From a virus: 64,000 bases of DNA. The position numbers were made by a program, and so were the translations under genes. Position 1 is the stretch's first letter. Every line of letters starts with the position of its first letter. The notes under the pieces were generated by a model. The model did no database searches. It worked only from the letters and a program-made list of their open reading frames with translations, and was not told the origin of the DNA. This document shows, piece after piece, positions 6,285-24,243 of this stretch. The DNA is taken from positions 42,257-106,256 of the IMG/VR virus record IMGVR_UViG_3300045988_107889. The stretch is one strand, 5' to 3'.

Positions 6285-6404
6285 GAAAGAGGATTTGTTT
6301 TTTTTTATTATCAAATAAGAAGTCGTCAAAAGTGAATCAGACCGGCGGAACATCCACCTGTGTAATTTACCTTTGAAAATTACTACATAAAAAGGAGAAT
6401 AACC

Positions 6405-7193
6405 ATGAATAACAATGAATTGTTGAAAAAGTACGAATCCACTACCACCACCGACCTGAACAATCAGGTGAAGTCCGCTGTCGAGAAGGCAAACGCCTAT
6501 GCTAAACAGCCCGAACTGAACCAGGTCGAGCTGTTGAAGCTCCGTGCCGATGCCGTTGCTCTGGCAGATGACTATAACCGTCTGGTAAAGCTCCGCCGTC
6601 TGGGCGAGCTGGCCGCCATGTCCTACGGGGACGCCATCAACGCCATGACGGTAGAGGGCGGGGAAACTTGCCCCAAGATGGAAGTGATTCTCGATGGGGA
6701 GATCATGAACATCACCACGTCCAACGCCACCCGTATCCGCTGGAACGAGTTGTTGAAGGCTGGCCAGTGTCCCGACGGTTACGAAAACCTGGAATCCCTG
6801 GTAAAGGTTTTCACCCACAACTGCCTCACCAACAAATTTGAAAAGGGTCAGTTGGTCGAGCTGCCCCCGCTGGACCCCGCTATCAAAGCGGTCGCTAATG
6901 GTCGTGACAACTGGGACTCTGGCTCTATGAATAAGTTGCAGTGCCAGATCCGGGATCTCATCGGCTGGATGTTCCCGGTGGACGAAGTAGGGGAATACTC
7001 TGCTCCTAGAAAGTCTGATGTACGGTGGTTTTCTGACATCGTTTGCCCTGCGAGTGACCGCGCTGGTGAACCTGCCCACTATGTCCAGCGCAAGGTATCT
7101 ACTTTGTTGGACTCCCTGTTCAGAGTGTTCTATACCCTGAAAGAGGAGAAGGAAGTGGTCGTACGGCCTGCAAAAGCTAGCAAGAACCAGTAA
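6405..7193 (+). CDS. hypothetical protein
   Basis: 262-aa ORF. AAAGGAG lies 8 nt before the ATG. Visibly more GC-rich than its neighbours. The long antisense ORF 6240..7079 is judged spurious. Confidence 0.7.
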   Translation: MNNNELLKKYESTTTTDLNNQVKSAVEKANAYAKQPELNQVELLKLRADAVALADDYNRLVKLRRLGELAAMSYGDAINAMTVEGGETCPKMEVILDGEIMNITTSNATRIRWNELLKAGQCPDGYENLESLVKVFTHNCLTNKFEKGQLVELPPLDPAIKAVANGRDNWDSGSMNKLQCQIRDLIGWMFPVDEVGEYSAPRKSDVRWFSDIVCPASDRAGEPAHYVQRKVSTLLDSLFRVFYTLKEEKEVVVRPAKASKNQ

Positions 7194-7360
7194 GTCGTTC
7201 CGGCGACTATAAACAGGCGTTAGGCCGGGAGCGTTCGCAGGTTAGGGCAAGCCCAACCTGCGAGGTCGCAGGAATAACATAGGTGGATTCTGTCTATGCC
7301 TGCAAAAAAAAAGCTACCCTAGCAGTAGCTTGCTAGGGTAGCGGAAGGGTAGGACGCTGT

Positions 7361-8353
7361 ATGAGTAACCATACATATGTAGTCGGTGAATATACCGACT
7401 ATGGTTATAAAGGTGGTGATGGTTTGTATAACGAAGATATTAAGCGGAATTTTTTGGATACGGAATGCAGTAGCTTGAAAAAGCAAAGAGATATTGCGAA
7501 AGTTTTTTCTTCTATCGCGTCGTTTGAGCAAGAGAATGGTCTAGACATCGCTGAAATGGGCAAGAATTTGAGCGCGCAGGCTCTTGAACGTACTGGAATA
7601 AATGAGTATAGTGGAATTAGGAGTTATATTACTAGGTTAAGAGAGTATGCAAGATGGTGCGAAAAAAACAATATCTTCCCATCAATCCCCGGCGGGATTT
7701 TTGAAGTTTCTCCGGACGATGTGGATATTACAGATTCTCTAAAAGGGGTTTTGTTTAAAGACGAATTTGACTTGCTGGAGTCTATTAGATTAGTCCGTGA
7801 CTTTGATTCTGGCTATCCAGAGGTTGCAGCCTTTTGTCTTTACTGGGTCGGTCTTACAAAAGACGAAGCAGTTTTGCTAAAAGACACTGACGTTGACTTG
7901 GAAAACAAGATCGTTTATGTTCATGACGGTATTGTTGCAGAAGACTTTTCGGATGCCATTTGTGATGTATTAAACCGTTACCGTAATTGCAAATGGTCAA
8001 CCCGGGCGAACGGAACTACACTCATGAGCGTTCGCAAGGATTTGTCTGTTGACACATTTCTTAAAAGGATGTTAACAGATGGTTCTAAAAAATTCGGTAT
8101 GCCTGTAACAAAAACACAAATCACAGCACTATGTCAAGATGTGGTGACGGATTGTTCAGCACTTGGTCTCCCTAGTCGTCATACTTTTCAAAACGTCTGG
8201 CGGTGCGGTGGGTTCAATCGTATGTACAAGCTGGAACAATCCGGCGTGGATGTAATGAACCGCCCCACCATAGAAACGGTTTTTCGTGGAAAAAAGAATT
8301 ACTACGATACACTAAGAATGTATCAATATTATAAAAAGGTCTTTGGTTTATAA
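7361..8353 (+). CDS. hypothetical protein, possibly a degenerate tyrosine-recombinase-like fold
   Basis: 330-aa ORF. YWVGLTKDEAVLLKDTDVDL resembles the Arg-I box but lacks the Arg. LPSRHTFQNV resembles the H-x-x-R-H-T box but lacks the first His. Confidence 0.6.
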   Translation: MSNHTYVVGEYTDYGYKGGDGLYNEDIKRNFLDTECSSLKKQRDIAKVFSSIASFEQENGLDIAEMGKNLSAQALERTGINEYSGIRSYITRLREYARWCEKNNIFPSIPGGIFEVSPDDVDITDSLKGVLFKDEFDLLESIRLVRDFDSGYPEVAAFCLYWVGLTKDEAVLLKDTDVDLENKIVYVHDGIVAEDFSDAICDVLNRYRNCKWSTRANGTTLMSVRKDLSVDTFLKRMLTDGSKKFGMPVTKTQITALCQDVVTDCSALGLPSRHTFQNVWRCGGFNRMYKLEQSGVDVMNRPTIETVFRGKKNYYDTLRMYQYYKKVFGL

Positions 8354-11505: not shown

Positions 11506-12171
11506 ATGGCTAAGTATGAGTACGACAAAAGTTATCCCTTCGCTGTTTATATCACGAACCTCGGGAAGTACAACGAGGGCGAGCTTGTGGGCGAGTGGGT
11601 TCACCTCCCCACAACAGCCAAAGAAATGAAGGAGGTGTTCGAGCGTATTGGGATCGGCCAGAAGGATGACTTCGGATGCCCTTATGAGGAGTGGTTTATC
11701 ACGGACTATGACTGTTATGTAACTGACCTTTGTCGGGGGTTCGGCGAATACGAAAATCTGGACGAGCTGAATTACCTGGCAGCAAGATTGGACGAGATGA
11801 GTGATCATGACTTTGAATTGTTCGAAGCGGTTATTGAGACAGGGGACTGCGGCGATTCTGTTAAAGATCTTATCAATCTCGTGGATAACCTGGATAGCTA
11901 TATGGTCTTCTCTAATGTGACCAGCGACTACGACCTTGGATATTACTACATCGAGGAAAGTGGTTGCTATGATACGGACAAGCTTGGCACGCTGGCCAGG
12001 TATATCGACTATGAAAGTTTTGGTCGAGACGTCCGGTTTGAAGAAGGAGGGTGTTTCACTTCCGCTGGATATGTTTTGCATGATGGTTCGAGCTTTACGG
12101 AATACTACGAGGGTGTCGAGGATATCCCCGATGAATATCGGGTAATGACTTTCAAAGAGGAGGATGAATGA
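11506..12171 (+). CDS. ardA: ArdA-family antirestriction protein
   Basis: VYITNLGKYNEGELVGEWVHLP..EEWFITDYD..ENLDELNYLAARLDEM and an overall acidic composition match my recollection of the ArdA family. Confidence 0.75.
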   Translation: MAKYEYDKSYPFAVYITNLGKYNEGELVGEWVHLPTTAKEMKEVFERIGIGQKDDFGCPYEEWFITDYDCYVTDLCRGFGEYENLDELNYLAARLDEMSDHDFELFEAVIETGDCGDSVKDLINLVDNLDSYMVFSNVTSDYDLGYYYIEESGCYDTDKLGTLARYIDYESFGRDVRFEEGGCFTSAGYVLHDGSSFTEYYEGVEDIPDEYRVMTFKEEDE

Positions 12172-12431
12172 TGGAACTGCAGATTGCACTGTTGGACTTG
12201 CTGAAGCAAGAAAAAGAGCTGGTCGACGAGATCAACAAAACGGGGTACGACGCGACCTATTACGAAAAGCGGGCTAAAGAGCATAAAGCTGGCGAAACTA
12301 TCTGTGATATGCAGGCCGCACTTGATGACTTCAGGAAGGCTAGACAGCTCTTGGAGGAAGAGGTTCGTCTTCTCGGTCGGCTGAAAGATATTCGTGTCAG
12401 GATCAACAACTACTTCGAGGAAGAACTCTAA
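12168..12431 (+). CDS. hypothetical coiled-coil protein
   Basis: 87-aa ORF with an ATGA overlap onto ardA. Confidence 0.55.
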   Translation: MMELQIALLDLLKQEKELVDEINKTGYDATYYEKRAKEHKAGETICDMQAALDDFRKARQLLEEEVRLLGRLKDIRVRINNYFEEEL

Positions 12432-13315: not shown

Positions 13316-13391
13316 ACCAGCATAGTTTTAAATGGGAAAACAACGGTCTCCAAAACCGTAGTTCTAGGTTCGAGTCTTAGTGCTGGTGCCA
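13316..13391 (+). tRNA. tRNA-Trp(CCA)
   Basis: Acceptor ACCAGCA/TGCTGGT. Anticodon stem ACGGT/ACCGT with loop CTCCAAA. T arm CTAGG-TTCGAGT-CTTAG. GCCA end. Confidence 0.8.
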
Positions 13392-13797
13392 CGTGCAAGT
13401 TTAATTGCACGGTGTGTAGTGTGAAAAAAGTCATATATTGCTCTATGTATATAACCTCACGGCGTAAAAGAGGTTGACTGTCTGACCGCAGTTATTCCAG
13501 TGCAATTCTGGTTGCCGTACACGCTGCTCAAAGCGGGTGAAGAGGTGTGGCACACTCCTTCCGTGCCTCACTTATGACTTCAAGGCGGTGCAATTCCGCC
13601 TAGCAGCTCTCAATCGCTCTAGTTAACTGGTTCTGGGGCGAGGGTCAAAACCAGCAACCTAAACATTGATTGCAGACACCTGGTTAAGTACAGGCTAGGC
13701 AAGAAAGCTCTCAGGCACGGTTGGGCAACACAATCCAGCCCTATCCTTTGGTTAGGCCGACTGATTGATAGGGCGGTTGTGGTTGCTGAACAAATAT

Positions 13798-13888
13798 CTC
13801 CCTGTAGCTAAATTGGTTATAGCTTCCAACTTATAATTGGAAGGCCCTCATAAGGTATATGGTGATTCGAATTCACCCAGGGAGACCA
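13798..13888 (+). tRNA. class II (long variable arm) tRNA with UAU anticodon
   Basis: Acceptor CTCCCTG/CAGGGAG. D arm GCTA-AATTGGTTA-TAGC. Anticodon stem TCCAA/TTGGA with loop CTTATAA. 19-nt variable region. T arm GGTGA-TTCGAAT-TCACC. ACCA end. Confidence 0.7.
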
Positions 13889-13939
13889 CGATACCACGAT
13901 AAAAATCTAATTCCATAAATAAGAAAGTGAGGAACTAAT

Positions 13940-14593
13940 ATGAACAAAGAAACTATGACCGTCCATAAAGCTCTTGCGGAGCTGAAAATTTTGGACGCTA
14001 GAATTTTCAACGCCACTTCTGGCAAAACATTTGTCGCCGCGAAGAAGGTGAGCGACAAAAAGATCGGCGGTGTGTTGGTCGAAACCCTCAAGAAGGATAT
14101 GAAGTCTGATTATCAGTCTGTTACGGACTTGATTGCTCGTCGGACTGCCATTAAGAGAGCAGTTGTGCTCTCTAATGCCAAAGCTAAGGTAGTAATTGGT
14201 GGTGAGACCTATACTGTGGCAGAAGCTATTGAAATGAAGAACCATGGCCTCATGGCAAAGAGAGACTTGCTGGATGTAATGGTTCGGCAGTATGAAAAGG
14301 CTCGTGCCGAGGTCGCCAAACACGAAGGCGAGTGGATTGAAGCGAAAGCCGAGCAATACATTATGAATTTCCTTCAGTCGCAGCCCAAAGAGGCCAAGAC
14401 AACCAAGGATTCTGAGGTCGTTAAGCGGTTGAGAGAAGAGTATATTGCCAACAATACGTATGAACTCATTGATCCGCTTGACATTGGTAATGAAATCAAG
14501 GTTTTGAGCGATTGGATTGACGCGTTTACTGCGGATGTAGATTCTCAGCTGTCTGTGTCCAATGCGACCACTACAATCACCGTAGAATACTAA
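13940..14593 (+). CDS. hypothetical protein embedded in the tRNA operon
   Basis: 217-aa ORF with GTGAGGA upstream of the ATG. The antisense ORF 13907..14698 is rejected. Confidence 0.7.
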   Translation: MNKETMTVHKALAELKILDARIFNATSGKTFVAAKKVSDKKIGGVLVETLKKDMKSDYQSVTDLIARRTAIKRAVVLSNAKAKVVIGGETYTVAEAIEMKNHGLMAKRDLLDVMVRQYEKARAEVAKHEGEWIEAKAEQYIMNFLQSQPKEAKTTKDSEVVKRLREEYIANNTYELIDPLDIGNEIKVLSDWIDAFTADVDSQLSVSNATTTITVEY

Positions 14594-14600
14594 AATAATC

Positions 14601-14943
14601 AACTTGCTGCAACCCGAAAACCTAAAACGGTAACCCATCGTGCTGACGGCACTTGGTTCGATGTAAAAATGAACAAATATGTGCCAACTACAAGGCAAAC
14701 TTGAAATTTTGTGCTTGTAAAAAGATTGGGCGGTTAATCCAAATCTCTTATAAAAAGAAGATATTTGCTGTAAAGCTCAAATTTCAAAGCTCGAATTTCA
14801 AAATTCAAGGCTCAAAGATCTTCAGAAGATTAAAGTTCAAGGGTCAACGTTCAATGGTTAAAGTTTTACAAAATCCTGGGTTAATGGTTTGGGTCAGTTA
14901 TCAACGCCCACGGGTCAACCACCAGGCTGGGTTGTAGCAAGTT
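14601..14943 (+). ncRNA. candidate structured RNA domain closed by a 15-bp helix, with internal TTCAA-rich degenerate repeats
   Basis: AACTTGCTGCAACCC (14601-14615) pairs with GGGTTGTAGCAAGTT (14929-14943); 14 Watson-Crick pairs plus one G-U that works only on the plus strand. Lies immediately 5' of tRNA-Leu. Confidence 0.35.
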
Positions 14944-14949
14944 CAATAT

Positions 14950-15034
14950 GCGGGATTGGCGGAATTGGTAGACGCATCGTGTTTAAGTCTCGATGTCGAA
15001 AGACGTAGGAGTTCGAGTCTCCTATCCCGTACCA
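14950..15034 (+). tRNA. tRNA-Leu(UAA)
   Basis: Acceptor GCGGGAT/ATCCCGT. Anticodon loop TTTAAGT. Variable arm GTC-GAAA-GAC. T arm AGGAG-TTCGAGT-CTCCT. ACCA end. Confidence 0.8.
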
Positions 15035-15183
15035 AAGAAAAGCCCATAGTTTGCGGACTATGACACCTGAAAAGTGGCGGTTTGCTTCTGGTAGACCGTA
15101 GTAGTGTGTTGACATCCTGGAAGAGACAGGAGTTCCCCTTTTTGATCCCCCTTACATAGCTACCCCGCTTTGCGGGGTAGCGT

Positions 15184-15259
15184 GGCCGATTAGTTTAAAT
15201 GGTAAAACGGCGGATTTGTACCCCGCAGATGTCGAGTTCGAGCCTCGCATTGGCCTCCA
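15184..15259 (+). tRNA. tRNA-Thr(UGU)
   Basis: Acceptor GGCCGAT/ATTGGCC. Anticodon stem GCGGA/CCCGC with loop TTTGTAC. T loop TTCGAGC. TCCA end. Confidence 0.75.
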
Positions 15260-15260
15260 T

Positions 15261-15334
15261 GCTACTATAGTTTAATGGTTGAACGGTTGTTTCGTAAGCA
15301 ACAGGTTCCAGTTCGATTCTGGGTAGTAGCTCCA
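15261..15334 (+). tRNA. tRNA-Thr(CGU)
   Basis: Acceptor GCTACTA/TAGTAGC. Anticodon stem GTTGT/GCAAC with loop TTCGTAA. T arm TCCAG-TTCGATT-CTGGG. TCCA end. Confidence 0.8.
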
Positions 15335-15337
15335 TAT

Positions 15338-15412
15338 CTGGGTGTAGCGCAATGGAAGCGCTCCTGATTTGGGATCAGGAGGTTGTCAGTTCGAGCCTGA
15401 CCACTCAGACCA
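15338..15412 (+). tRNA. tRNA-Pro(UGG)
   Basis: Acceptor CTGGGTG/CACTCAG. Anticodon stem CCTGA/TCAGG with loop TTTGGGA. T arm GTCAG-TTCGAGC-CTGAC. ACCA end. Confidence 0.8.
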
Positions 15413-15414
15413 AT

Positions 15415-15489
15415 GCAGGCGTAGTTCAACGGCTAGAACACCGGTCTTCCAAACCGGAAACGCGAGATCGGCACTCGTCGCCTGCTCCA
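15415..15489 (+). tRNA. tRNA-Gly(UCC)
   Basis: Acceptor GCAGGCG/CGCCTGC. Anticodon stem CCGGT/ACCGG with loop CTTCCAA. Atypical T loop ATCGGCA. TCCA end. Confidence 0.75.
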
Positions 15490-15595
15490 TATCAAGCAAC
15501 AGAAAACGATTCTCCTACCTGTTATTGTTGATAAATCACCTCCTTTCTTTACATAGCCTGGAATGGCGTTAAACTCTGCTCTGCTTGATTTATAT

Positions 15596-15669
15596 AGCGC
15601 CGTAGCATAACGGTAATGCAACGGACTTTGACTCCGTAAACGGTAGTTCGACACTATCCGGCGCTGCCA
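15596..15669 (+). tRNA. tRNA-Gln(UUG)
   Basis: Acceptor AGCGCCG/CGGCGCT. Anticodon stem ACGGA/TCCGT with loop CTTTGAC. T arm GGTAG-TTCGACA-CTATC. GCCA end. Confidence 0.8.
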
Positions 15670-15727
15670 CGTTCGTTTTATACGGACACTTGCTTTCATT
15701 AACCGGCGGTACCACCGCCGGTAACAT

Positions 15728-15812
15728 GTGGGCGTGATGTAATTGGCAAACATGCGAGATTTAGGTTCTCGTGTCGAAAGATGTGCGGGTTCGAACCCCG
15801 TCGCCCACTCCA
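15728..15812 (+). tRNA. tRNA-Leu(UAG)
   Basis: Acceptor GTGGGCG/CGCCCAC. Anticodon stem CGAGA/TCTCG with loop TTTAGGT. Long variable arm. T arm GCGGG-TTCGAAC-CCCGT. TCCA end. Confidence 0.8.
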
Positions 15813-15876: not shown

Positions 15877-16749
15877 ATGACAGTGACAGCTTATGAAGAA
15901 TTGTTGAGCAAGTTGTTGTTCGAAGAACGGAACGGTGGACAGTTGGCGTATGCTTACGTGTCTCCGGAAATGGCGACGGGTTTGTTGGCTATGTCCGGCG
16001 GCAATCGTCCGATCAGTAAGAGCACTGTGAATAAGTACAAGTCCCATATGATGAATGGCACATGGGATGAAGATACTCCGACTGGCTTTATTATGTTTGA
16101 TAAGGCTGGTGTTCTTATCGACGGGCATCACCGGCTCGAAGCAGTGAAGCGCTGCGGTAAGACAGTAAAGATGTTCTTCCTGTTCAATATGGAACGCAGT
16201 CCGTACATTGACCGGGGTAGGGCGAGAAGTGAAGCCGACGCTTTGTGTATGGCCGAGGGCGGAAACAGAGGAAAGATTTCTTCTTACAAGCGCTCGGTTG
16301 CAATCTGCATGGTGCTGAATGAGTTTAGTGCGAGGCACTTGGAGAATGAAGCTAAGAGAGCGGACATGATTTCGAAGCACATCGCTGAATTCTCCTGGGT
16401 TAATAGTTTCTTGAAGGTGAGACAGAGAAAACTTGGCACGGCTCCGGTCACAGCTGCCATGTATCTGGCGAAAGAAGCCGGAGCGAGCGATGTTAAGCTC
16501 GAATACTTCTGGAATGTTCTCCAGACTGGTTATGCTGAGTCTAGTTTGGATAGGCAGATTGTCCGCTTGAGAGATTGGATTAAGGATTCTACTATTGATG
16601 GCCGGTGCAAGCATTATCGTCACCGTGTGTTCTTGACGACCTCTTATGTGTTGTCCAGATGGTTGGACGGCAAGGAAACCAAAGGCGTTCCCGATCCTGA
16701 GTGCTTGGTTGTTTGGAACAACGGTCAGCAAAGAATTGATAACGCATAA
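15877..16749 (+). CDS. ParB/Srx-like N-terminal domain protein
   Basis: 290-aa ORF with TAGGAGG upstream. NRPISKSTVNKYKSHMMNGTW...VLIDGHHRLEAV matches the ParB-type DGxHR box. Confidence 0.6.
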   Translation: MTVTAYEELLSKLLFEERNGGQLAYAYVSPEMATGLLAMSGGNRPISKSTVNKYKSHMMNGTWDEDTPTGFIMFDKAGVLIDGHHRLEAVKRCGKTVKMFFLFNMERSPYIDRGRARSEADALCMAEGGNRGKISSYKRSVAICMVLNEFSARHLENEAKRADMISKHIAEFSWVNSFLKVRQRKLGTAPVTAAMYLAKEAGASDVKLEYFWNVLQTGYAESSLDRQIVRLRDWIKDSTIDGRCKHYRHRVFLTTSYVLSRWLDGKETKGVPDPECLVVWNNGQQRIDNA

Positions 16750-16815
16750 ATAGAATCGCAATTTGAACAAACGTCAGTAACTACAGTTAATAACCAACAA
16801 AAACATTCGCATTTT

Positions 16816-16855
16816 TTCTCAAAAAAAATGAGAAGCTATTTCCGGAACGGGATAG
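16816..16855 (+). promoter_or_regulatory. conserved two-hairpin element, copy 1 (apical CCGGAACGG)
   Basis: TTCTCA-A7-TGAGAA then CTATTTCCGGAACGGGATAG. Covaries with the copy at 22730-22772. The second hairpin recurs at 20136-20155. Confidence 0.5.
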
Positions 16856-17170
16856 TAATATATTGCCAGAGGAGAGCATCTCGCTGCCAAGCCTGATGGC
16901 AGTACCGCCGAGCGACTCGTGCATCCGCCAACCCAGCCGCAGGTCATCACAAGAGCAGACGCGAAAAAAAAAATGCCCACCACGCAGTCGCCCCGCATCA
17001 GAAAGGCACAAGGCTCGAAGCGACATGGAAGGTCGCAACGGTACAACTATAGGCAAACGCACCCTGCAAGCAACGCAAGTACATTATGGCGCAAGCCACC
17101 TAACGACATCGCTCGATTTCCTGATTTCCTGAGGCCCATATCTAGGAGTGTAATGTTGGTTTACGACTGA
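16856..17170 (+). ncRNA. T-poor non-coding leader R1, candidate ncRNA paralogous to the RT leader
   Basis: No credible ORF. Shares the block CATCCGCCAACCCAGCCGCAGG (16922-16943) with CATCCGCCACCAGCAGGGG at 22931-22949. Confidence 0.35.
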
Positions 17171-17202
17171 GTTAATAATACATGAAAAAAGGAGTACATA
17201 AC

Positions 17203-17592
17203 ATGGAAATTATCGTATGTGGTAACGCAGTAACGCTCAAGAGTGCTTTCACTCTTGAAGAAATCAATCGCGCAGCTCTGTATCGGCCTAAGTCTGTACA
17301 GCTGCTGGACGAAGATGGCAACGCACTGTTTTACACTCTCGCTGGCGAGAGAGGAGTAGTAGCACCGACCGGTATTATCTATGAGGCTGAGTCTTGTGAT
17401 GGCTCTGGTCGTGCGGTCGTAACAGTGAGTCTTATTACCGAAGCTGACCGTTCCGTACGTGAGGTTGTTGCCGAGAGATATGCTTCTGTTATCGAGAAGG
17501 TAGAAAAGATTGAAGCCCAGGTGCGCGAAGCGCTGGAAGAGATCGACGTTATGATGGCACGGGTCAGTTCCAAGATCGTAGTAGCTGGCTAA
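17203..17592 (+). CDS. hypothetical protein ending ...KIVVAG (cassette gene 1)
   Basis: Start trimmed to the ATG at 17203, 8 nt after AAGGAG. 129 aa with a C-terminal coiled segment and a terminal Gly. Confidence 0.65.
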   Translation: MEIIVCGNAVTLKSAFTLEEINRAALYRPKSVQLLDEDGNALFYTLAGERGVVAPTGIIYEAESCDGSGRAVVTVSLITEADRSVREVVAERYASVIEKVEKIEAQVREALEEIDVMMARVSSKIVVAG

Positions 17593-17633
17593 AACAAATA
17601 AGCATAGATGTAATAACAGAAAGGAAGTATAAC

Positions 17634-17873
17634 ATGATTATTGTTAATGTTCGTAGCACCACCCGGCGTTTTGATGGTCAGGCTGTAGATGAGAGCGTGG
17701 AAACCCCTCGTTCTCTGTTCGAGAAGATCGGAATTGAGTGCAGCCGTAGCGTAAATTCTCTTTCCGGCACGATTCTGACGCCTGATGATATGAGTTGCAC
17801 TTTTGCCGAACTTGGTGCCGCTGGTGTTTGTACTCTGAGTGCTATTGTTAAGGCGCAAGGTAACGCGATCTGA
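17634..17873 (+). CDS. small protein, candidate ubiquitin-like beta-grasp modifier (cassette gene 2)
   Basis: 79 aa, starts MIIVNVR and ends AIVKAQGNAI. Sits in a JAB/E1 neighbourhood. The fold is not verifiable by eye. Confidence 0.6.
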   Translation: MIIVNVRSTTRRFDGQAVDESVETPRSLFEKIGIECSRSVNSLSGTILTPDDMSCTFAELGAAGVCTLSAIVKAQGNAI

Positions 17874-17999
17874 TTCGAGTTAGCACAATCTACGAGGCCG
17901 GACAATGTCCGGCCTCGTACATAACACAGTGAGTTGCTGGGAGGGCATTCGGTTACGTCGGATGACCTGCCAAGAGTTCATAAAGAAAGGAGAAGATAT

Positions 18000-19415
18000 A
18001 TGTTTTCAAATTGTTTGAAGCGCAGTGAAGTTTTAGTGCTGGCCCCAGAGCTGGAGTCTGAGTTTTCTAATATTGCTGGCGACGGGACGTTCAAAGGCGA
18101 TGACTTTGCGTTGGCAATGGCTCGGTTGTTTTTGAAGCCAAGAGTTCCGGCGGACGTGTGCATCACGGTTAGAGTGGTGGATTCTAATTGTGCTGATTGG
18201 ATTACGTGGATAAAAGACAAAGAGCGTTTTTCGGAGGTGACTTCTCAAGACAACACAATTACATTTTGCGTGTGTGATAAGGTTAAGGCCGTAGAAACTT
18301 TAGTCAGTAATATGAAATGTGCGAGCAGTTGGAAAGAGAAGACGGCAAGAGAGCTGAATCTAATGAAAGAACGACTCGGTATCATACTGAGAATTTTCAG
18401 TAATGAAGAGAGGAAGAGTACGGTTGTCCTTACCGACGTGGATAACTATGGCTCGTGGCATTACCTAGTGTGTCTTTTCAATGTATTCTGCCCATGGTAC
18501 ATTAAAGACAGGACTGAAGCGGAGTCAAAGTTTATTAAGATTCTGTCCAAAGAAGACTCCGGCATGAGTGTAATCTGTAAAGCGATGAACGATATGGTTG
18601 CCGCTGCTGTGGACGTGGCCTCAGCTAAAAAGAGATATTACCTTTATGGCTATGAGGGAAAGCTAAGGAACGTACAGAGGGAAAGATACACAAAGAAGAT
18701 GGAGAGTGCAAGAAGTCAGATCAATAAATTGACGTCCGATTTGAGAGATTGGTATAGAGAATACGAAGGTTGGTCTTTGTTGGTGGCAGCAATTGACAAC
18801 AGTAATGTTGAGAGCAAGAACGAGTTAATGGATTATTTTCTGTCGAACAAAAATGTGTCTGTTGAGAGCGGTGACAAAGATGGGAATATCGTATATGTTG
18901 TAACTGGTTATATGACACTGTTTGATCCAGAGATTGCGAGAGAGTACATCAACAATTGGTCGTCGATTTTTTATACGCAGTCTTCGTATGCGGGCCTGAC
19001 AGAAAGTGATACTAAAAAGTTAATGACAGGGATTTTCATTGACTCTGATATCAAAGTAAGAATGTGTTCCGCATGGAGACTTTCTTTCGGAGGAGGGGTA
19101 CTACCCATCGTGGCATATGGGTATGGCTGTGAATACAACAGCTATCTCCCCAACACACACCTTGATAAATATGGTTGCATGGGGAGCTGGCAACAGGCGT
19201 TAGAGAAATCTTGCGACAAATGTGACTACGTTTATACGGTAGACACGACGTGTGCCGAAAGCGGGAATCTGAATCTTAGTGATACTGTCGTATTGAGATC
19301 ATTCCTTGAAGAGTTGTTGAGAGAAGGCGCTGTAGTATTGGAGTTGCCGGATGGGCGAGTAGTTAATTACATCGACGCAATTAAATGGATAAAGGAGAAT
19401 AAGAGCAATGAATAA
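18000..19415 (+). CDS. hypothetical 471-aa protein with an E2-like LPNTH..GC loop near the C-terminus (cassette gene 3)
   Basis: Start trimmed to the ATG at 18000 after AAAGGAG. LPNTHLDKYGCMGSW is encoded at about 19146-19190. Confidence 0.65.
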   Translation: MFSNCLKRSEVLVLAPELESEFSNIAGDGTFKGDDFALAMARLFLKPRVPADVCITVRVVDSNCADWITWIKDKERFSEVTSQDNTITFCVCDKVKAVETLVSNMKCASSWKEKTARELNLMKERLGIILRIFSNEERKSTVVLTDVDNYGSWHYLVCLFNVFCPWYIKDRTEAESKFIKILSKEDSGMSVICKAMNDMVAAAVDVASAKKRYYLYGYEGKLRNVQRERYTKKMESARSQINKLTSDLRDWYREYEGWSLLVAAIDNSNVESKNELMDYFLSNKNVSVESGDKDGNIVYVVTGYMTLFDPEIAREYINNWSSIFYTQSSYAGLTESDTKKLMTGIFIDSDIKVRMCSAWRLSFGGGVLPIVAYGYGCEYNSYLPNTHLDKYGCMGSWQQALEKSCDKCDYVYTVDTTCAESGNLNLSDTVVLRSFLEELLREGAVVLELPDGRVVNYIDAIKWIKENKSNE

Positions 19416-20094
19416 GGCAACTAATGCAACGGATTTGTTGGCTGCGACAAATCCGTGCAAAATCGTATACAGTAAGAAGGCATGGATGAAGACGTGTTTG
19501 CTTGTTATGAATAGGAATCTTGAGGTTGGATGGCACGGAGTTGCAAGAAGGTTGGAAAATCCAGCTGAGTTTATCGTGGAGGACGTCTTGGTATTCCCCC
19601 AGAAGGTCACGTCGGCAAGCACCGAACCTGAAGATGCGGACTATGTGAACTGGCAGGATTCTCTTAACACGGAAATATTCAATAAGGTTCGGTTGTACGG
19701 GCATTCTCATGTGAACATGGGTGTCAGTCCATCTTCTACGGATATAAAGTATAGAGCAGATTTGCTGACAGACGTTGATGATTTCTACGTCTTTCAGATT
19801 TTCAATAAGAAAGGCTACATATCCTCACAGGTTTATGATGTTAGAGAAGGCATCCTGTACGAAAGCGACAATGTGGAACTCGCAGTGGAACGATGGAACC
19901 CCGCTGTATATGATTTGTGCAGAGGGTTTTTCGATAACATTGACCGGTTTGAGAAGGTGGACGTGCGTGATGTACAGGATGGAATCGAGTGGATCATGAA
20001 CGCAGCATCCGAGTTTGAAAAATTCATGGAGGACGCAGATAAAATTATTGATGAGCGGCCCGATTGGCGTGACGGTAAGATGTTAATTAAGTAA
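19408..20094 (+). CDS. JAB/MPN (JAMM) metalloprotease
   Basis: GHSHVNMGVSPSSTD gives H-x-H-x7-S-x2-D, with upstream acidic EFIVEDV. ATG overlaps the end of the previous gene. Confidence 0.8.
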   Translation: MNKATNATDLLAATNPCKIVYSKKAWMKTCLLVMNRNLEVGWHGVARRLENPAEFIVEDVLVFPQKVTSASTEPEDADYVNWQDSLNTEIFNKVRLYGHSHVNMGVSPSSTDIKYRADLLTDVDDFYVFQIFNKKGYISSQVYDVREGILYESDNVELAVERWNPAVYDLCRGFFDNIDRFEKVDVRDVQDGIEWIMNAASEFEKFMEDADKIIDERPDWRDGKMLIK

Positions 20095-20135
20095 AAAACA
20101 TATGTGCCTGTACAGATATGTTAAATTACATATCA

Positions 20136-20155
20136 CTCTTGTCGGAACGAGGGAG
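20136..20155 (+). promoter_or_regulatory. conserved CGGAACG hairpin, copy 2
   Basis: CTCTTGTCGGAACGAGGGAG, compared with CTCTTACCGGAACGGAAGAG (22753-22772) and CTATTTCCGGAACGGGATAG (16836-16855). Confidence 0.45.
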
Positions 20156-20267
20156 TAACAAATGGCTGTGTCGCTTCAAAAGTTTTCCGCTCTGGGAGTA
20201 GGAAAACTTTTTGAACTTAAACAGCTGGTTAGCTGTTCAGAGGTACATAAGAAAGGAGAAGACCGGT

Positions 20268-20609
20268 ATGGAGGTATATTGTGTGATAACAGAAACAGAC
20301 CAGGGTATTGATTTATCCGGTGTTTATTGGAATTTGGAGAGTGCGGTAGAACACGTGAAACGTAGGTTTTATTCAGTGTTTCAAGAATACGTCGATGATG
20401 GATGCGAAATGATTGAAGGTGACAATTTTAATGCTCCAGATAAATACGGCGCGACAATTTATCTGGAACCGGACGACTATTGGATTTGGCGTGTTTACTT
20501 TGGCGAAGTAAGAGATGAGTGCCTGGTGAGTGGGCCGAACGAAGTGGTGCCGCCGCTAGAAGGGAAGCGTGTTGACGAAGAGACGCTTATGAATTGTTTG
20601 CTGCTATAG
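20268..20609 (+). CDS. CLLL-tail paralog 1
   Basis: ATG at 20268 after AAAGGAG. Ends VDEETLMNCLLL. Confidence 0.7.
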   Translation: MEVYCVITETDQGIDLSGVYWNLESAVEHVKRRFYSVFQEYVDDGCEMIEGDNFNAPDKYGATIYLEPDDYWIWRVYFGEVRDECLVSGPNEVVPPLEGKRVDEETLMNCLLL

Positions 20610-20616
20610 AGGTGAT

Positions 20617-20958
20617 ATGATGTTTGAACTTGGGCAGAAAGTTACGCTTGCCCCAAAGTCATGGGATGAATTTCGGGGTGCTTTAATGGAGTTGTTTGCG
20701 AGAGAGATGATAGTAGATGAATTCTCAACTACTCATAAAGAAATGATATTGGTTACAGGGGTGCTTTATGGGGAAGGCGATTCTTGGTTTAACGACCTTC
20801 TAATAAATGGAGGTGAGATTATCAAGTGCTATGCTACTGGTTGGTATATGGTGAATATAAATGGAGTAAAACTGAAATTTCACGAAAGCGTGTTGTGTCT
20901 GAAAGAAGACATGAGGTCAGTTGATGAAAAATTGTTCATAAGTTGCTTATTATTGTGA
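20617..20958 (+). CDS. CLLL-tail paralog 2
   Basis: 113 aa with GAGGTGA upstream. Ends VDEKLFISCLLL. N-terminus ELGQKVTLAPKSWDEF. Confidence 0.75.
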   Translation: MMFELGQKVTLAPKSWDEFRGALMELFAREMIVDEFSTTHKEMILVTGVLYGEGDSWFNDLLINGGEIIKCYATGWYMVNINGVKLKFHESVLCLKEDMRSVDEKLFISCLLL

Positions 20959-20967
20959 GGTGATATA

Positions 20968-21300
20968 ATGTTTAGACCTGGGCAGCGGGTTGAGCTTATT
21001 CCCAAAACGTGGGATGAATTTAATGATAACTTACGGGCGGTATTTCCGAATGGAGCTGTGTCGCAGAGCGTAGACATCATCACAAACGAAAGATTTATAT
21101 ACGCCGACGATGTGATGTACGCGGAGGGCGATCCTTACCTCAGAGAGTTTATAAGAGACGGCGGCGAGATCGTTGAGTATGAACTTGGCGGTTGGTACAG
21201 GATAAGGGTTAGCAAAAAAGAGATGTCTTTCTATAAAAGTGTGTTGCGGTTAAAGCAATCTATTGATGAGCAGGTTTTTATGAACTGTTTGTTGTTGTGA
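20968..21300 (+). CDS. CLLL-tail paralog 3
   Basis: 110 aa with GAGGTGA upstream. Ends IDEQVFMNCLLL. N-terminus RPGQRVELIPKTWDEF. Confidence 0.75.
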   Translation: MFRPGQRVELIPKTWDEFNDNLRAVFPNGAVSQSVDIITNERFIYADDVMYAEGDPYLREFIRDGGEIVEYELGGWYRIRVSKKEMSFYKSVLRLKQSIDEQVFMNCLLL

Positions 21301-21584
21301 TAAGAGGTGGCGCTTTGAATATCGTAGCTGGTCAGAAATTTAGAGTTAAAAAGTGGTCAGAAAGCAATTCTGACCGCTTTTTTACCAGTAGCCATGAAAA
21401 GTATTGCGGGAAAACATTAACGGTGAGAGAAAAAGGTATACATAGAGGTGTGAGCGGTTACGTTCGCCCGATAATTTGGGCGTACGAATGTAGAGAGGTC
21501 GTGTGGTTTTCATGGATGATAGAACCTATTGAGGACCGCCGTCGTGTTAATGAAAATCTGTTTCTAAGCTGCTTGTTGTTGTAG
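21297..21584 (+). CDS. CLLL-tail paralog 4
   Basis: GTG at 21297 in a GTGA overlap; alternative TTG at 21315 after AAGAGGTGG. Ends VNENLFLSCLLL. Confidence 0.7.
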   Translation: MIRGGALNIVAGQKFRVKKWSESNSDRFFTSSHEKYCGKTLTVREKGIHRGVSGYVRPIIWAYECREVVWFSWMIEPIEDRRRVNENLFLSCLLL

Positions 21585-21591
21585 GTGATGT

Positions 21592-21933
21592 ATGAAATTT
21601 GAAGATATGTATGTTGGGCAAAAGATTAGGGTACGGACTTTAGACGACATGGTATCTGACCCTGATTTAACGTATAGACTTGATAAGTCTTTTAAAGTAG
21701 CGACGATCAGGTCTAAGGATAATACAACTCATTTGAGCTTAATTCGTAAGACAATGCGTTATTGTGGTACAGCTGTGACGGTGTTCTCATTAACAGAAAA
21801 TCTTGCACCAACAGAGTGGAGGCATGTTTATATAGAAGAAGATAATCAATATTACCCATGGGAGTCTTGGATGTTTGAACCGATTGAAAGTAAGGTTGAT
21901 AGTGATGTATTCTTGAGTTGTTTAATGTTATGA
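21592..21933 (+). CDS. CLLL-tail paralog 5 (CLML)
   Basis: 113 aa with TAGGTGA upstream. Ends VDSDVFLSCLML. Confidence 0.75.
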   Translation: MKFEDMYVGQKIRVRTLDDMVSDPDLTYRLDKSFKVATIRSKDNTTHLSLIRKTMRYCGTAVTVFSLTENLAPTEWRHVYIEEDNQYYPWESWMFEPIESKVDSDVFLSCLML

Positions 21934-21946
21934 GGAGGCATGAAAA

Positions 21947-22615
21947 ATGAATTTGTCGAAGAGTATTGAGTTCTTTAACCCCACAAAGGTCAAAGAAAGA
22001 GTACATATCATCGGCTGTGGCGCGTCCGGTTCCACTGTAGCCGAATTGTTGGCAAGAGCTGGGCTTGAGAAGGTTACTCTGTACGATTTTGACAAGGTTG
22101 AGTCGCACAATATCGCGAATCAGATGTTCAATGATAGCGACATCGGTAGAAATAAAGCTGAAGCCGTGAAAGATATGATGTTAAGTATCAATCCTGATGC
22201 AAATGGTATTGAAGTAGTTCAGGAGGGGTATACCAACCAGCGTCTGTCCGGCTATGTCTTCCTTATGGTGGACAACATTGATCTCCGCAGAAAAATTTGC
22301 GAAGAAAATGCTAGAAACCCGTATATCAAAGCTGTGTTTGATACCAGACTTCGGCTGACGGACGCGCAACACTTTGCGGCTGACTGGAGTTCTAGTGCGA
22401 TGGTTGAAAATCTGATTAACTCCATGCAGTTTACTCAAGAGGAAGCTCTGGCTGAAACTCCTCGATCTGCATGTAACCTGGAGCTTAGTATCGCTCCTTC
22501 CGTGCGGATGATTTGCTCTTGTGCAGTAGCAAACTTCATGAATTTTGTGAATGGGCGTTCGATCAAGAAGATAGTTTTGATCGACGCCTTTGATTTTACT
22601 ATGGAAGCATATTAA
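21947..22615 (+). CDS. ThiF/MoeB/E1-like adenylyltransferase (adenylation domain only)
   Basis: VHIIGCGASGSTVAELL Rossmann loop, DFDKVESHNIANQ, GRNKAEA, MVDNIDLRRKI. GAGGAGG lies 8 nt before the ATG. Confidence 0.8.
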   Translation: MNLSKSIEFFNPTKVKERVHIIGCGASGSTVAELLARAGLEKVTLYDFDKVESHNIANQMFNDSDIGRNKAEAVKDMMLSINPDANGIEVVQEGYTNQRLSGYVFLMVDNIDLRRKICEENARNPYIKAVFDTRLRLTDAQHFAADWSSSAMVENLINSMQFTQEEALAETPRSACNLELSIAPSVRMICSCAVANFMNFVNGRSIKKIVLIDAFDFTMEAY

Positions 22616-22729
22616 ATATTAGTTGTTTGAGGTGGAAATTTCGTGTCGCCACGCGCCTTAATGGCTAAAGAGATGCAGGGGAATGGCACGCCTGCTAACA
22701 ACCAATTCAATCTAAATATCTGAAAGCAC

Positions 22730-22772
22730 TTTCTATTTAAAAAAAATAGAAACTCTTACCGGAACGGAAGAG
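22730..22772 (+). promoter_or_regulatory. conserved two-hairpin element, copy 3
   Basis: TTTCTAT-loop-ATAGAAA then CTCTTACCGGAACGGAAGAG. Compensatory changes relative to copy 1. Confidence 0.5.
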
Positions 22773-23060
22773 TGGCACATCGTCCGAAAGAGGAACCCCG
22801 CTGCGTGCGATAGCAAACCAATACTTGGTGCCCTCCAAGAAGGCTTAACACCCCGGTGGCATCTTCTCTGATGAGAAGCATCGCCCGAACAACAGGAAAA
22901 ACCAGAAGGATATTCGTTCGACAGGTTCAACATCCGCCACCAGCAGGGGTATCCGGCAAACAATAAACGCCAAGTCAGGGATTTCACCGTCTCAGACGAC
23001 GACAAGCTCCGCGATGAGCATCTCGTACTGACATCCAAATCCATATATAGTTTCAGATAA
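22773..23060 (+). ncRNA. T-poor leader R2 upstream of the RT, candidate RT-associated ncRNA
   Basis: 460-nt gap between the E1 and RT genes with no plus-strand ORF. Local hairpins, e.g. CTTCTC-TGAT-GAGAAG. Shares blocks with R1. Confidence 0.4.
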
Positions 23061-23076: not shown

Positions 23077-24243
23077 ATGATTTATGTAACAGCAAGAATT
23101 ACAGAGCCGTATAAGCAGATTTCTTTAGAGGATATTATGTCTGCGCTGCTTCAAGATAAACATGTGAGGGAATCGAGATCTCTATATACTAGAACAGTTA
23201 CATATGAGAGACTGCCCGAGAGAATCCTGGCAGGGTTTGACACGGGGAAAAAGATTGAGCTGCTGAGAGCATTTAACAAAAAGCATCAGGAACTGCTTGA
23301 AAGCGATCTTCATACGCATTACCACAAGTTTTTTATCCCGAAAAAGAGCGGCGGCATGAGAGAGATTAACGCGCCGGACGACGAGCTGATGAATTGTCTG
23401 CGAGAGCTAAAACTGCTGTTAGAATCTGAGTTTTATGCGAGCAGCCACGCCGCTGCGTACGCTTATGTCAAAAACAGAAGCAGTGTAGATGCAGCAAAAG
23501 TCCATCAGTGGAACAAGAGTAAGTGGTATTTAAAGACTGACATCAGCGGTTTCTTTCCCAACACTACTCCAAAGTTTGTATGGAACGCGCTGTCTACAAT
23601 TTATCCGTTCTGTCTCATTATGGAGCACAAGAACGGGAGAGAGGAGCTTAAAAAAGCTCTGTCGCTCTGTTTCTTAGACGGCGGCCTGCCTATGGGGACA
23701 CCGATCAGCCCGATGCTGACCAACCTGATTATGATTCCATTTGATTTTGAGTTCAGTAAGTTTCTGCGCAGCCTACAGGACCCAGCGAACAGCCCTGATA
23801 GAAAGGGTAGAAGGTTCGCGTATACCAGATATGCTGACGACATGAATATTAGCTGTGGTATTGAATTTGATAAGGGGTTTATTATTAGAAAGATTGAAGA
23901 GCTATTTAGGCTGTTTGGAGCTAGTTATATCATTAAAGACGAGAAGACTCATTACGGCCCGTCGTATCATAAGAATTGGGTACTCGGTGTGATGATCAAC
24001 AAGGACAACCAGATCACGATTGGGTATAAGAAGAAGCGCAACTTCGAGGCGATGCTTTTCAATTACGCGAAGGACAGAAAGAGCGGAACTTATTGGCCTC
24101 TTGAGCAACTGCAATATGTGCTCGGTCTTATGAGCTACTATCGAATGGTTAACAGAGGAAGTATTGATGGAGTTATCACTCGCTATAGTCAGAAGTTTGG
24201 CTTTGATATTGAAGCCACGATGAAGAAGGATCTCAAAAACTAA
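23077..24243 (+). CDS. reverse transcriptase, retron/Abi-like class
   Basis: FFIPKKSGGMREINAP (RT1-2), LKTDISGFFPN (motif A), GLPMGTPISPMLTN (motif B), YTRYADDMNIS (YADD), and NWVLGVMINKD, which resembles the retron VTG region. No maturase or endonuclease domain. Confidence 0.85.
   Translation: MIYVTARITEPYKQISLEDIMSALLQDKHVRESRSLYTRTVTYERLPERILAGFDTGKKIELLRAFNKKHQELLESDLHTHYHKFFIPKKSGGMREINAPDDELMNCLRELKLLLESEFYASSHAAAYAYVKNRSSVDAAKVHQWNKSKWYLKTDISGFFPNTTPKFVWNALSTIYPFCLIMEHKNGREELKKALSLCFLDGGLPMGTPISPMLTNLIMIPFDFEFSKFLRSLQDPANSPDRKGRRFAYTRYADDMNISCGIEFDKGFIIRKIEELFRLFGASYIIKDEKTHYGPSYHKNWVLGVMINKDNQITIGYKKKRNFEAMLFNYAKDRKSGTYWPLEQLQYVLGLMSYYRMVNRGSIDGVITRYSQKFGFDIEATMKKDLKN

Follow-up and report, generated by a model that had tools for sequence, protein, structure and literature searches.

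A phage-carried gene module combining a retron-type reverse transcriptase with a predicted ubiquitin-like conjugation set

Which system is encoded by a phage locus in which the genes of an E1-like adenylating enzyme, a JAB/JAMM metalloprotease, several small proteins and a reverse transcriptase (RT) lie close together? The locus is present in a stretch of 64,000 nucleotides of the IMG/VR virus record IMGVR_UViG_3300045988_107889 (positions 42,257 to 106,256 of the record). This whole stretch is hereafter called the window, and coordinates refer to it unless a locus number is given. An earlier note on this DNA had proposed a phage-borne, ubiquitin-type conjugation cassette similar to PRTRC (ParB-related, ThiF-related cassette), made up of a ParB-like protein, small modifier candidates, an E2-like candidate, a JAB protease and an E1/ThiF enzyme and followed by an RT. 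The analysis described here shows that the feature exists, that it is widespread and that it has yet to be characterised; it is distinct from the PRTRC cassette of plasmids, and its combination of parts is absent from described systems. The window is part of a phage genome of approximately 107 kb, to which three other IMG/VR contigs of 106-109 kb (L005, L006 and L013) are near-identical; these four are referred to as the window lineage.

A conserved unit of six genes and an RNA

Iterated hidden Markov models (HMMs) were built for each window protein and run on 85 related loci (from IMG/VR, ENA, JGI and one GenBank record) and on 30 loci from metagenome-assembled genomes (MAGs) to define the families that recur. 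Gene order was counted in a set of 90 loci, which includes five loci from other searches that do not contain the cassette. Six families recurred in a fixed order: p136, p79 (a ubiquitin-like protein, Ubl), p493, JAB, E1 and RT. The exact order of all six was present in 65 of the 90 loci, and most of the other 20 cassette loci represent truncations, tandem duplications or split genes; approximately 20 of the 30 MAG loci showed the same order. p136 was found in 82 of the 90 loci and p493 in 85 loci. The RT, present in 81 of the 85 cassette loci and in approximately 20 of the 24 cassette-bearing MAG loci, is as conserved as the E1, and none of the flanking gene families occurred in more than 38 loci. 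Since the RT is kept in the same place in approximately 100 loci, it belongs to the module. With the non-coding RNA (ncRNA) described below, the conserved unit is p136 - Ubl - p493 - JAB - E1 - ncRNA - RT, found in approximately 100 phage-like gut-metagenome loci, almost all of them from large uncultured phages.

The open reading frames (ORFs) of 129, 79 and 471 aa that had been noticed between the ParB-like gene and the JAB gene are conserved genes across these loci. They are the window's copies of p136 (129 aa from the conserved start), p79 and p493, respectively. In most other loci the JAB and E1 genes abut or overlap, and the relatives that keep the order encode a JAB protein only approximately 35-45% identical to that of the window. 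In subsets of the loci, additional ORF families, one of 268 aa and one of 181 aa, separate E1 from RT or JAB from E1 (L038, 11502-12308; L014, 7745-8368); these may be mobile genes. In locus L007 a gene for RNase H is present 3' of the RT (11749-12177).

The RT (388 aa, 23077..24243, + strand) contains the motifs YADD and LPxGxPxSP and matched the Pfam family RVT_1 (2.4e-13). Its best NCBIfam match was retron_St85_RT over the full model, with 163 bits (E 9e-48) against a family cut-off of 235; the group II intron RT model gave only 66.6 bits. In PADLOC, RT_II-A was matched at 6e-41 and, among the matches listed, all were retron-type RT models. The St85/type II-A and type I-A models come nearest to the protein, which scores below the named-family cut-offs. 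Judged by these profiles, it falls in the retron clade and is not a member of the St85 family.

The gap of 375 nt 5' of the RT contains no ORF on the + strand and carries a predicted retron-type ncRNA (22717..23059, + strand). A perfect 9-nt inverted repeat bounds this leader (22717-22725 and 23051-23059; 5' arm TATCTGAAA, 3' arm TTTCAGATA), with the 3' arm located 18 nt before the RT ATG. The 5' arm is followed by a G (G22726), two msr-like hairpins (to about 22790) and a variable, GC-rich body of approximately 250 nt. Perfect repeats of at least 9 nt in the expected geometry were found in 18 of 67 non-redundant loci, compared to a mean of 4.05 (maximum 10) in shuffled sequences. The arms vary between loci yet stay complementary, as in ACTGTAAC/GTTACAGT, AAGCATGTAAT/ATTACATGCTT and GCTATAAT/ATTATAGC, and 12 of the 18 repeat-bearing loci have a G after the 5' arm. 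When anchored on the 5' arm, 12 diverse loci could be aligned as arm - G - hairpin 1 - hairpin 2 - GTAACA..TTG, and in these loci compensatory double changes are seen at each of the six base pairs predicted for hairpin 2. Beyond the window lineage, nhmmer detected no conservation of the RT leader; it appeared only once the alignment was anchored on the inverted repeat; a covariance model of the window lineage (R1) found nothing significant in the other loci, and the minimum free energy fold of the whole leader (z = -1.9) was uninformative. The leader is predicted to have the msr-msd architecture of a retron, with a1/a2 repeats, a candidate branching G and msr hairpins.

What had been described before as a private motif punctuating the cassette is indeed a repeated, structured element; rather than being private, it forms the two-hairpin 5' part of this conserved ncRNA. 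A search with the two-hairpin pattern gave two matches where 0.08 were expected. The second full copy (16796-16900; found by nhmmer, 88.6 bits with R1) is situated in a non-coding leader of 370 nt before p136 (16792..17161, + strand), which is flanked by an 8-nt inverted repeat (AACCAACA/TGTTGGTT) and occurs in the window lineage only. A third, partial copy (20095..20165, + strand; hairpin 2 CTCTTG-TCG-GAA-CGA-GGGAG; 23 bits with R1, E 0.1) occupies the equivalent position in the window, L005 and L013. The three copies in the window carry three inner-stem variants. Only in the window lineage does the element accompany the Ubl operon in addition to the RT.

Another RNA, the skipping-rope small RNA (sRNA; RF02924, 22622..22702, + strand, 50.3 bits against a gathering score of 36.7), lies between the E1 stop codon and the ncRNA. 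It was considered as the ncRNA of the RT and rejected because none of the 10 other cassette loci scanned contains it; only the window and L005 do. A pattern scan found it in 85 other phage loci, beside integrase-like and tail-fibre-like genes and not beside RTs. Its commonest neighbour is a tyrosine-recombinase-like protein of 341 aa just downstream, and tail-fibre-like proteins are also common. The sRNA is probably a passenger.

The predicted conjugation proteins

Profile HMM scans with the single window sequences (Pfam, NCBIfam, PHROG, PADLOC), as suggested in the earlier note, were essentially empty for p136, p79, p493, the JAB protein and the five paralogous ORFs described further on. The E1 could be identified directly: the 222-aa protein encoded at 21947..22615 (+ strand) matches Pfam ThiF (PF00899, 5e-24) over residues 17-218, as had been expected from its adenylation signature. 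The family conserves GCGxxG, DfDxVexhNxxNQ, a Lys, a DxI...R segment and the Cys of TPxSAC (Cys176 in the window), the last being present in at least 90% of 71 unique E1 sequences. The NCBIfam and PADLOC E1 models aligned to the N-terminal half only. With the NCBIfam models the window E1 reached 72.7 bits for ThiF (cut-off 159) and 48 bits for MoeB (cut-off 266).

The JAB/JAMM metalloprotease (228 aa, 19408..20094, + strand) carries the motif HSHVNMGVSPSSTD, and its start overlaps the end of p493. As a single sequence it had no matches in Pfam, NCBIfam, PHROG or PADLOC, and none of the 75 proteins found in a homologue search carries a Pfam domain. In an alignment of 34 sequences E39, H99, S100, H101, S109 and D112 are invariant, which together make up the full JAMM signature. 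The H-x-H-x7-S-x2-D motif reported earlier thus stands, with the catalytic Glu being E39 (EVGWHG) and not, as had been assumed, part of EFIVED. A search of the PDB with the JAB profile matched only Rpn11 chains, with the motif in register (E about 0.03), and Prok-JAB was the Pfam family touched by most members (7 of the 34, weak matches). An exhaustive search yielded 1,852 cluster representatives at E<=1e-30 and 4,398 at E<=1e-10; the family is large, unnamed and has no Pfam model. Most of the relatives (P0013-P0069, alignment columns 300-484) have long, low-complexity C-terminal tails rich in Gly, Tyr, Asn and Asp (e.g. ...YGGYR, GNYGYYGG), in place of which the window protein has a structured, acidic C-terminal region.

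The 79-aa protein p79 (17634..17873, + strand) is predicted to be a beta-grasp Ubl of the ThiS/SAMP type. The top PDB matches of its profile were SAMP2, PF1061, ThiS, ubiquilin and ubiquitin-type chains (E 0.02-1.4), and members of its family match ThiS of NCBIfam (5.7e-5), ThiS of Pfam (0.0027) and other Ubl families. Its length is 75-80 aa in most relatives. The window protein ends in K-A-Q-G-N-A-I; the tail of the family reads K-x-D-[N/S/G/C]-A followed by 0-4 variable residues, and the last conserved residue is Ala in 49 of the 61 scored tails. Because the tail is conserved and the extensions are variable, the precursor is expected to be trimmed by the adjacent JAMM enzyme. On this profile evidence p79 is read as a ubiquitin-like modifier, and as the sole modifier in the cassette.

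The earlier note had offered both the 79-aa and the 129-aa ORF as modifier candidates; the second of these could not be upheld. p136 (17203..17592, + strand), which is always located just upstream of the Ubl, gave an AlphaFold2 model (pLDDT 94.4) with a small antiparallel beta-sheet packed on a 40-residue C-terminal helix. No significant match to this model was found among PDB folds, with a likeness to START domains and type III chaperones at a probability of at most 0.15. A second Ubl is ruled out by the hhalign comparison to p79 (0.7%), by the model, which is not a beta-grasp, and by the variable C-terminus. HMM cross-matches between p136 and p79 obtained early in the analysis derived from fusions or from contamination of the iterated profiles. 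p136 contains no conserved Cys. Tandem duplications of the p136-Ubl pair are present in several loci, as are fusions of the two into a single ORF, in which the Ubl is C-terminal and its tail is left free; jointly, these arrangements were seen in L068, L070, L071 (about 6390-8044), L105, L106, L112 (5672-6292) and L030 (6965-7567). p136 is a putative stoichiometric partner of the Ubl with an unmatched fold.

Directly after the p79 stop codon the window contains a GC-rich inverted repeat that can form a 17-bp hairpin (17888..17922, + strand). The 90 nt past the p79 stop codon fold with z < -2 in 77% of 71 non-redundant loci, and in many relatives a GC stem followed by a T-run makes up a canonical intrinsic terminator. 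A hairpin or terminator at this position suggests that more p136 and p79 is produced than of the three larger proteins, as would be expected of substrates relative to enzymes.

The AlphaFold2 model (pLDDT 85.9) of p493 (471 aa in the window, 18000..19415, + strand) begins with a flavodoxin-like alpha/beta domain, continues with long helices that form a coiled coil and ends in a second alpha/beta domain. Throughout the family just two residues, His387 and Cys393, are invariant; they belong to the motif Pro-Asn-x-His-x5-Cys-x-Gly, which is located after a beta-meander and before three helices. In E2 enzymes the spacing from the Asn to the Cys of the HPN...C motif is 8, equal to that in p493. The model matched a single entry in BFVD, an uncharacterised protein of another uncultured phage. 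The E2-like candidate of the earlier note could not be confirmed as a recognisable E2: five search routes, by profile and by fold, were all negative for p493. Its His/Cys motif makes it a candidate thioester relay, with a possible E2-like role. In line with this, a weak p493-like protein is encoded just upstream of JAB and E1 in two distant relatives that have no RT.

Lineage-specific genes, genomic setting and carriers

Two further parts had been included in the cassette. The first is the gene at 15877..16749 (+ strand, 290 aa), which encodes a ParB/DGQHR-like protein. The DGHHR box on which its assignment was based is present, and the protein matches phrog_5931 (3e-32); the match to the ParB-like phrog_1033 is marginal (6e-4), and there were no matches in Pfam, NCBIfam or the PDB. 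The second part consists of five paralogous small ORFs of 95-132 aa (20211..21933, + strand) between JAB and E1. Their conserved tails, ...[V/I]DExx[L/F]x[N/S]CL[L/M]L, are CaaX-like, and no database matches were found for them. Among the 85 cassette loci, homologues of the ParB-like gene are limited to L005, L006 and L013. The paralogs occur only in the window and in the same three loci, of which L005 has five and L006 and L013 have fewer. Because they are restricted to these three close relatives, the ParB-like gene and the paralogs lie outside the system. Loss of synteny between the JAB, E1 and ParB-like genes had been named in advance as a sign of chance adjacency; JAB and E1 keep their order in the relatives, and only the ParB-like gene does not. 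The cassette as first drawn, with E1, JAB and Ubl in the early region of a phage, therefore has to be redrawn without the ParB-like gene and the paralogs and with the RT and the ncRNA.

The genes of the window are almost entirely on the + strand. An anti-restriction gene, ArdA (11506-12171, Pfam 3.1e-40), is located 3.7 kb upstream, and an array of nine tRNA genes (Trp, Ile-tat, two Leu, two Thr, Pro, Gly and Gln; 13316-15812) lies directly 5' of the cassette. Genes for a NAD-dependent ligase, a primase-helicase, Pol III alpha and an anaerobic ribonucleotide reductase (NrdD) follow on the 3' side. With ArdA and tRNAs upstream and replication genes downstream, the cassette falls in an early/replication region, and the phage is one that infects an anaerobe. 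The nearby ArdA gene marks the region as early and as one of counter-defence. L038 and L016 are among the relatives in which tRNA arrays likewise lie beside the cassette.

A near-identity search among cultured and deposited phages gave no matches to the window, and MT835544, an uncultured faecal phage, is the only deposited phage record with the cassette. The carriers are IMG/VR phage contigs of approximately 50-170 kb and contigs binned in MAGs. In a scan of 185,579 species genomes, relatives were found only on MAG contigs and none came from isolates; these MAGs belong mostly to gut Clostridia (Oscillospiraceae, Lachnospiraceae, Christensenella and Defluviitaleaceae). On one contig of 244 kb, from an Oscillospiraceae MAG (L119, 6923-9483), the cassette is in fragments, with p493 split, a short E1 and the RT in three pieces; this copy may be a decaying integrated cassette.

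Other structured RNAs were also encountered. The window contains a Pistol self-cleaving ribozyme (RF02679, 7193-7270, 66.9 bits) and two group I introns (47639-47950, 82.9 bits; 57319-57610, 52.4 bits). The ORF for Pol III alpha (45718-47715) has the first intron at its end, so that this gene may be split by the intron. A RAGATH-36 RNA (132.8 bits) is present 5' of the cassette in the related phage L038 (1861-2017).

Possible function and comparison with known systems

From the gene content, the synteny, the catalytic motifs, the profile-based assignment of the Ubl and the architecture of the ncRNA we infer the following sequence of events. The first sub-operon, closed by the hairpin or terminator, would yield p136 and p79 in excess. 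The JAMM protease would remove the tail of 0-4 residues of p79 and so expose the end ...K-x-D-[N/S/G/C]-A, after which the E1 would adenylate the p79 carboxylate and hold p79 on Cys176 through a thioester bond. From there p79 could pass to the invariant His-x5-Cys of p493, which, in the manner of an E2, would attach it to one or more target proteins, with p136 serving as escort, as adaptor or as the first target of p79. The RT would copy part of the ncRNA into a cDNA resembling retron multicopy single-stranded DNA (msDNA). Together with the conjugation enzymes, the RT-cDNA could act as sensor or regulator of the effector, as in known retrons, or could be a substrate or scaffold.

We give an even chance, and less for each single step, to the reading that the module is a phage-encoded retron with a Ubl-conjugation accessory module, used in conflict during early infection. 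The most likely role of the module is in such a conflict, be it host takeover, counter-defence or the exclusion of competing phages. Several observations weigh against this reading. As to the enzymes, the usual Arg of the NxxRQ motif is absent from the E1 (NIANQ in the window), the tail of p79 does not end in Gly-Gly or Gly, and p79 and the JAB protein were assigned from sequence profiles alone. As to p493, none of the 45 family members matched the Prok-E2 or UBC families of Pfam, two PDB profile searches with p493 returned no E2, and Foldseek found no match to its model in the PDB (best E 0.13). The control for the inverted-repeat test is imperfect, as eight such repeats were found upstream of E1. 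Finally, retrons of the defence type are usually sporadic accessory genes, whereas the present module is kept across a whole clade of phages, for which a core function in the life cycle would fit equally well.

Such a core function, in which the Ubl pathway and the retron serve the replication or expression of the phage, e.g. by tagging or priming a replication protein, is in our opinion unlikely. It agrees with the near-universal presence and fixed order of the genes among relatives so far diverged in JAB identity, with the position beside the ligase, primase-helicase, Pol III alpha and NrdD genes, and with the RNase H gene after the RT in L007. The parts are separable, however, as other phages and MAG contigs can carry JAB and E1 side by side but no RT; the module also adjoins ArdA, and known retrons and bacterial Ubl operons all act, according to reviews, in defence.

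The coupling of the two halves could also be direct. The retron cDNA, or the complex of RT and ncRNA, might be the immediate partner of the Ubl machinery, with the Ubl joined covalently by the E1 and p493 to the RT or to the nucleic acid, giving a protein-msDNA conjugate, or with msDNA as a scaffold or gate for conjugation. We hold this to be improbable to a similar degree; if true, it would mean a new type of retron, and reverse transcription and ubiquitin-like chemistry would for the first time be linked by a virus-encoded system.

A greater measure of doubt attaches to a sulfur-carrier pathway, in which p79 would be a carrier of the ThiS/MoaD/TtuB type that is thiocarboxylated by the E1, and the JAMM enzyme would serve either its maturation or the release of adducts, as in CysO/Mec+ and QbsE/QbsD. 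The sulfur might be destined for nucleic acid, for instance the adjacent phage tRNAs or the retron cDNA. The best named HMM matches are ThiF for the E1 and ThiS for members of the p79 family, tRNA arrays adjoin the cassette in the window as well as in relatives, and sulfur carriers are known to have JAMM enzymes as partners (Iyer et al. 2006, PMC1779556). The p79 tail does not have the Gly-Gly of such carriers, though, and the ThiF and ThiS models remain far under their cut-offs (for ThiF, the 72.7 against 159 bits given above). The conserved block contains no rhodanese, cysteine desulfurase or PP-loop ATPase, p493 has none of their motifs, and a conserved His/Cys protein with a partner protein suits protein transfer better.

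It is very unlikely that the RT/ncRNA and the E1/JAB/Ubl genes are independent elements brought together by chance or by a shared genomic neighbourhood. In favour of this, the RT forms a transcription unit of its own and has its own leader, the gap between E1 and RT ranges from -9 to approximately 2,370 nt and sometimes contains extra ORFs, and a few distant MAG contigs have JAB-E1 pairs without an RT. Against this stand the retention of the RT at its place in nearly all cassette loci, which no flanking family approaches, and the copies of the msr-like motif that the window lineage carries before the Ubl operon and after JAB. Descent from the PRTRC system of plasmids and integrative and conjugative elements (ICEs), as a divergent member, could be suggested by the resemblance of the parts (ThiF-like, JAB-like and small proteins, with a ParB-like gene close by) and by the similar size order given in the earlier note. 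It is extremely improbable, because the PRTRC_ThiF score is below that of many other E1 models, the other PRTRC models and the scans across the JAB and Ubl families are negative, the ParB-like gene is confined to three related loci, the carriers are phage contigs and not plasmids or ICEs, and PRTRC has no RT.

The PRTRC system comprises seven constituents defined by TIGRFAM models on mobile elements (PMC3318190). The models for PRTRC A-F and ParB gave no match to the window proteins at E<=0.1, PRTRC_ThiF scored 35.4 bits on the window E1 against a cut-off of 144.75, and 34 JAB and 33 Ubl family members showed no PRTRC match at E<=1. A plasmid search with the E1 gave matches in 496 plasmids, in only 4 of which at least 80% of the query was covered, and PRTRC was annotated on none among the matches listed. 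The two systems share a ThiF-like enzyme, several small or medium-sized uncharacterised proteins and a location on a mobile element, with a ParB-superfamily gene nearby in the window lineage only. They differ in that no PRTRC model is matched above its cut-off, ParB is not conserved here, the carrier is a phage, and an RT and ncRNA are present.

Prokaryotic Ubl systems were first catalogued by Iyer et al. in 2006, with E1/E2/JAB classes 6a-6e (PMC1779556). The cassette contains three hallmarks of Ubl conjugation, namely an E1 domain (GxGxxG, DxD, K and DN motifs, Cys176), the JAMM motif E...HxH-x7-S-x2-D and a predicted beta-grasp modifier. It shares with Bil (BilABCD), Bub, the classes 6a-6e and Cap2/Cap3 of CBASS (cyclic oligonucleotide-based antiphage signalling system) the E1 adenylation domain, an intact JAMM, a beta-grasp modifier encoded in the operon and an association with conflict-related elements. 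It differs from all of these in the absence of a recognisable UBC/E2 fold, with the 471-aa orphan and its His-x5-Cys instead, and in a Ubl that ends in Ala, Asn or Ser and not in Gly. Furthermore, it has the additional 129-aa partner, no partner of the CD-NTase (cGAS/DncV-like nucleotidyltransferase) or MBL (metallo-beta-lactamase) kind, and a retron RT with ncRNA, and its carriers are apparently non-integrated phages, whereas theirs are cells. As for type II CBASS, which is marked by a CD-NTase together with an E1-E2 fusion, the PADLOC E1-E2 models align only to the adenylation core of the 222-aa E1, and the Ubl, p136, p493 and JAB had no matches in PADLOC.

Retrons have been divided into 13 types by their accessory genes (Mestre et al. 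2020, PMC7736814); the words ThiF and ubiquitin are absent from that paper, and none of its types has a Ubl pathway. The present module resembles a retron in its retron-clade RT, in a same-strand ncRNA just upstream with inverted repeats, a G after the 5' arm and msr-like hairpins, and in having accessory genes. It differs in an RT that remains under the named cut-offs (163 vs 235), in a long ncRNA (approximately 300-340 nt) and in a five-gene Ubl accessory module; the element is fixed in a clade of large phages and is known here from sequence alone. The sulfur carriers (CysO/MoeZ/Mec+, QbsE/QbsC/QbsD, TtuB/TtuC and SAMP/UbaA/JAMM1) provide the best similarity for p79 (ThiS, SAMP2) and for the E1 (ThiF) and also include a tail-trimming JAMM. 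Unlike these, the cassette has no Gly-Gly end and no sulfur-donor or acceptor enzymes, and it contains the extra His/Cys and partner proteins.

Relatives of part of the cassette, likewise uncharacterised, exist in named phages. In the crAss-like phage cr111_1 (L003, 4655-6660) and Flavobacterium phage FpV4 (L004, 4701-6633) a JAMM protein with the motif HSHNNMxxFFSGTD is encoded directly upstream of an E1 of the same family (about 1e-50 to 1e-54 with the window-family HMM), in the replication/early region. Here the JAB domain is part of a protein of approximately 420 aa, and no homologues of p136, p79, p493 or the RT were detected. In these two phages and in Xanthomonas jumbo phage PhiXhv-12 (L002) the same-family E1 is labelled 'thiamine biosynthesis protein', and the JAMM protein of cr111_1 and FpV4 'metalloprotease'; these annotations are probably misleading.

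A full-text search of the published literature for RT or retron together with ThiF, JAB, JAMM or Ubl found no description of the module, in agreement with the earlier remark that the combination was not recognised from any described system; the remark that an RT follows the cassette holds as well. Retrons and bacterial Ubl operons have both joined the known means of phage-host conflict only recently and are each known from cells; in this large clade of gut phages, which is uncultured throughout, the two appear as one phage-carried module. It offers what may be a new type of retron with a defined ncRNA, together with an E1/JAMM/Ubl set whose predicted modifier has a non-glycine C-terminus. It also offers two confidently modelled orphan folds, one of which may be a new kind of thioester carrier, and it gives a meaning to the labels 'thiamine biosynthesis protein' and 'metalloprotease' in crAss-like and other phages.

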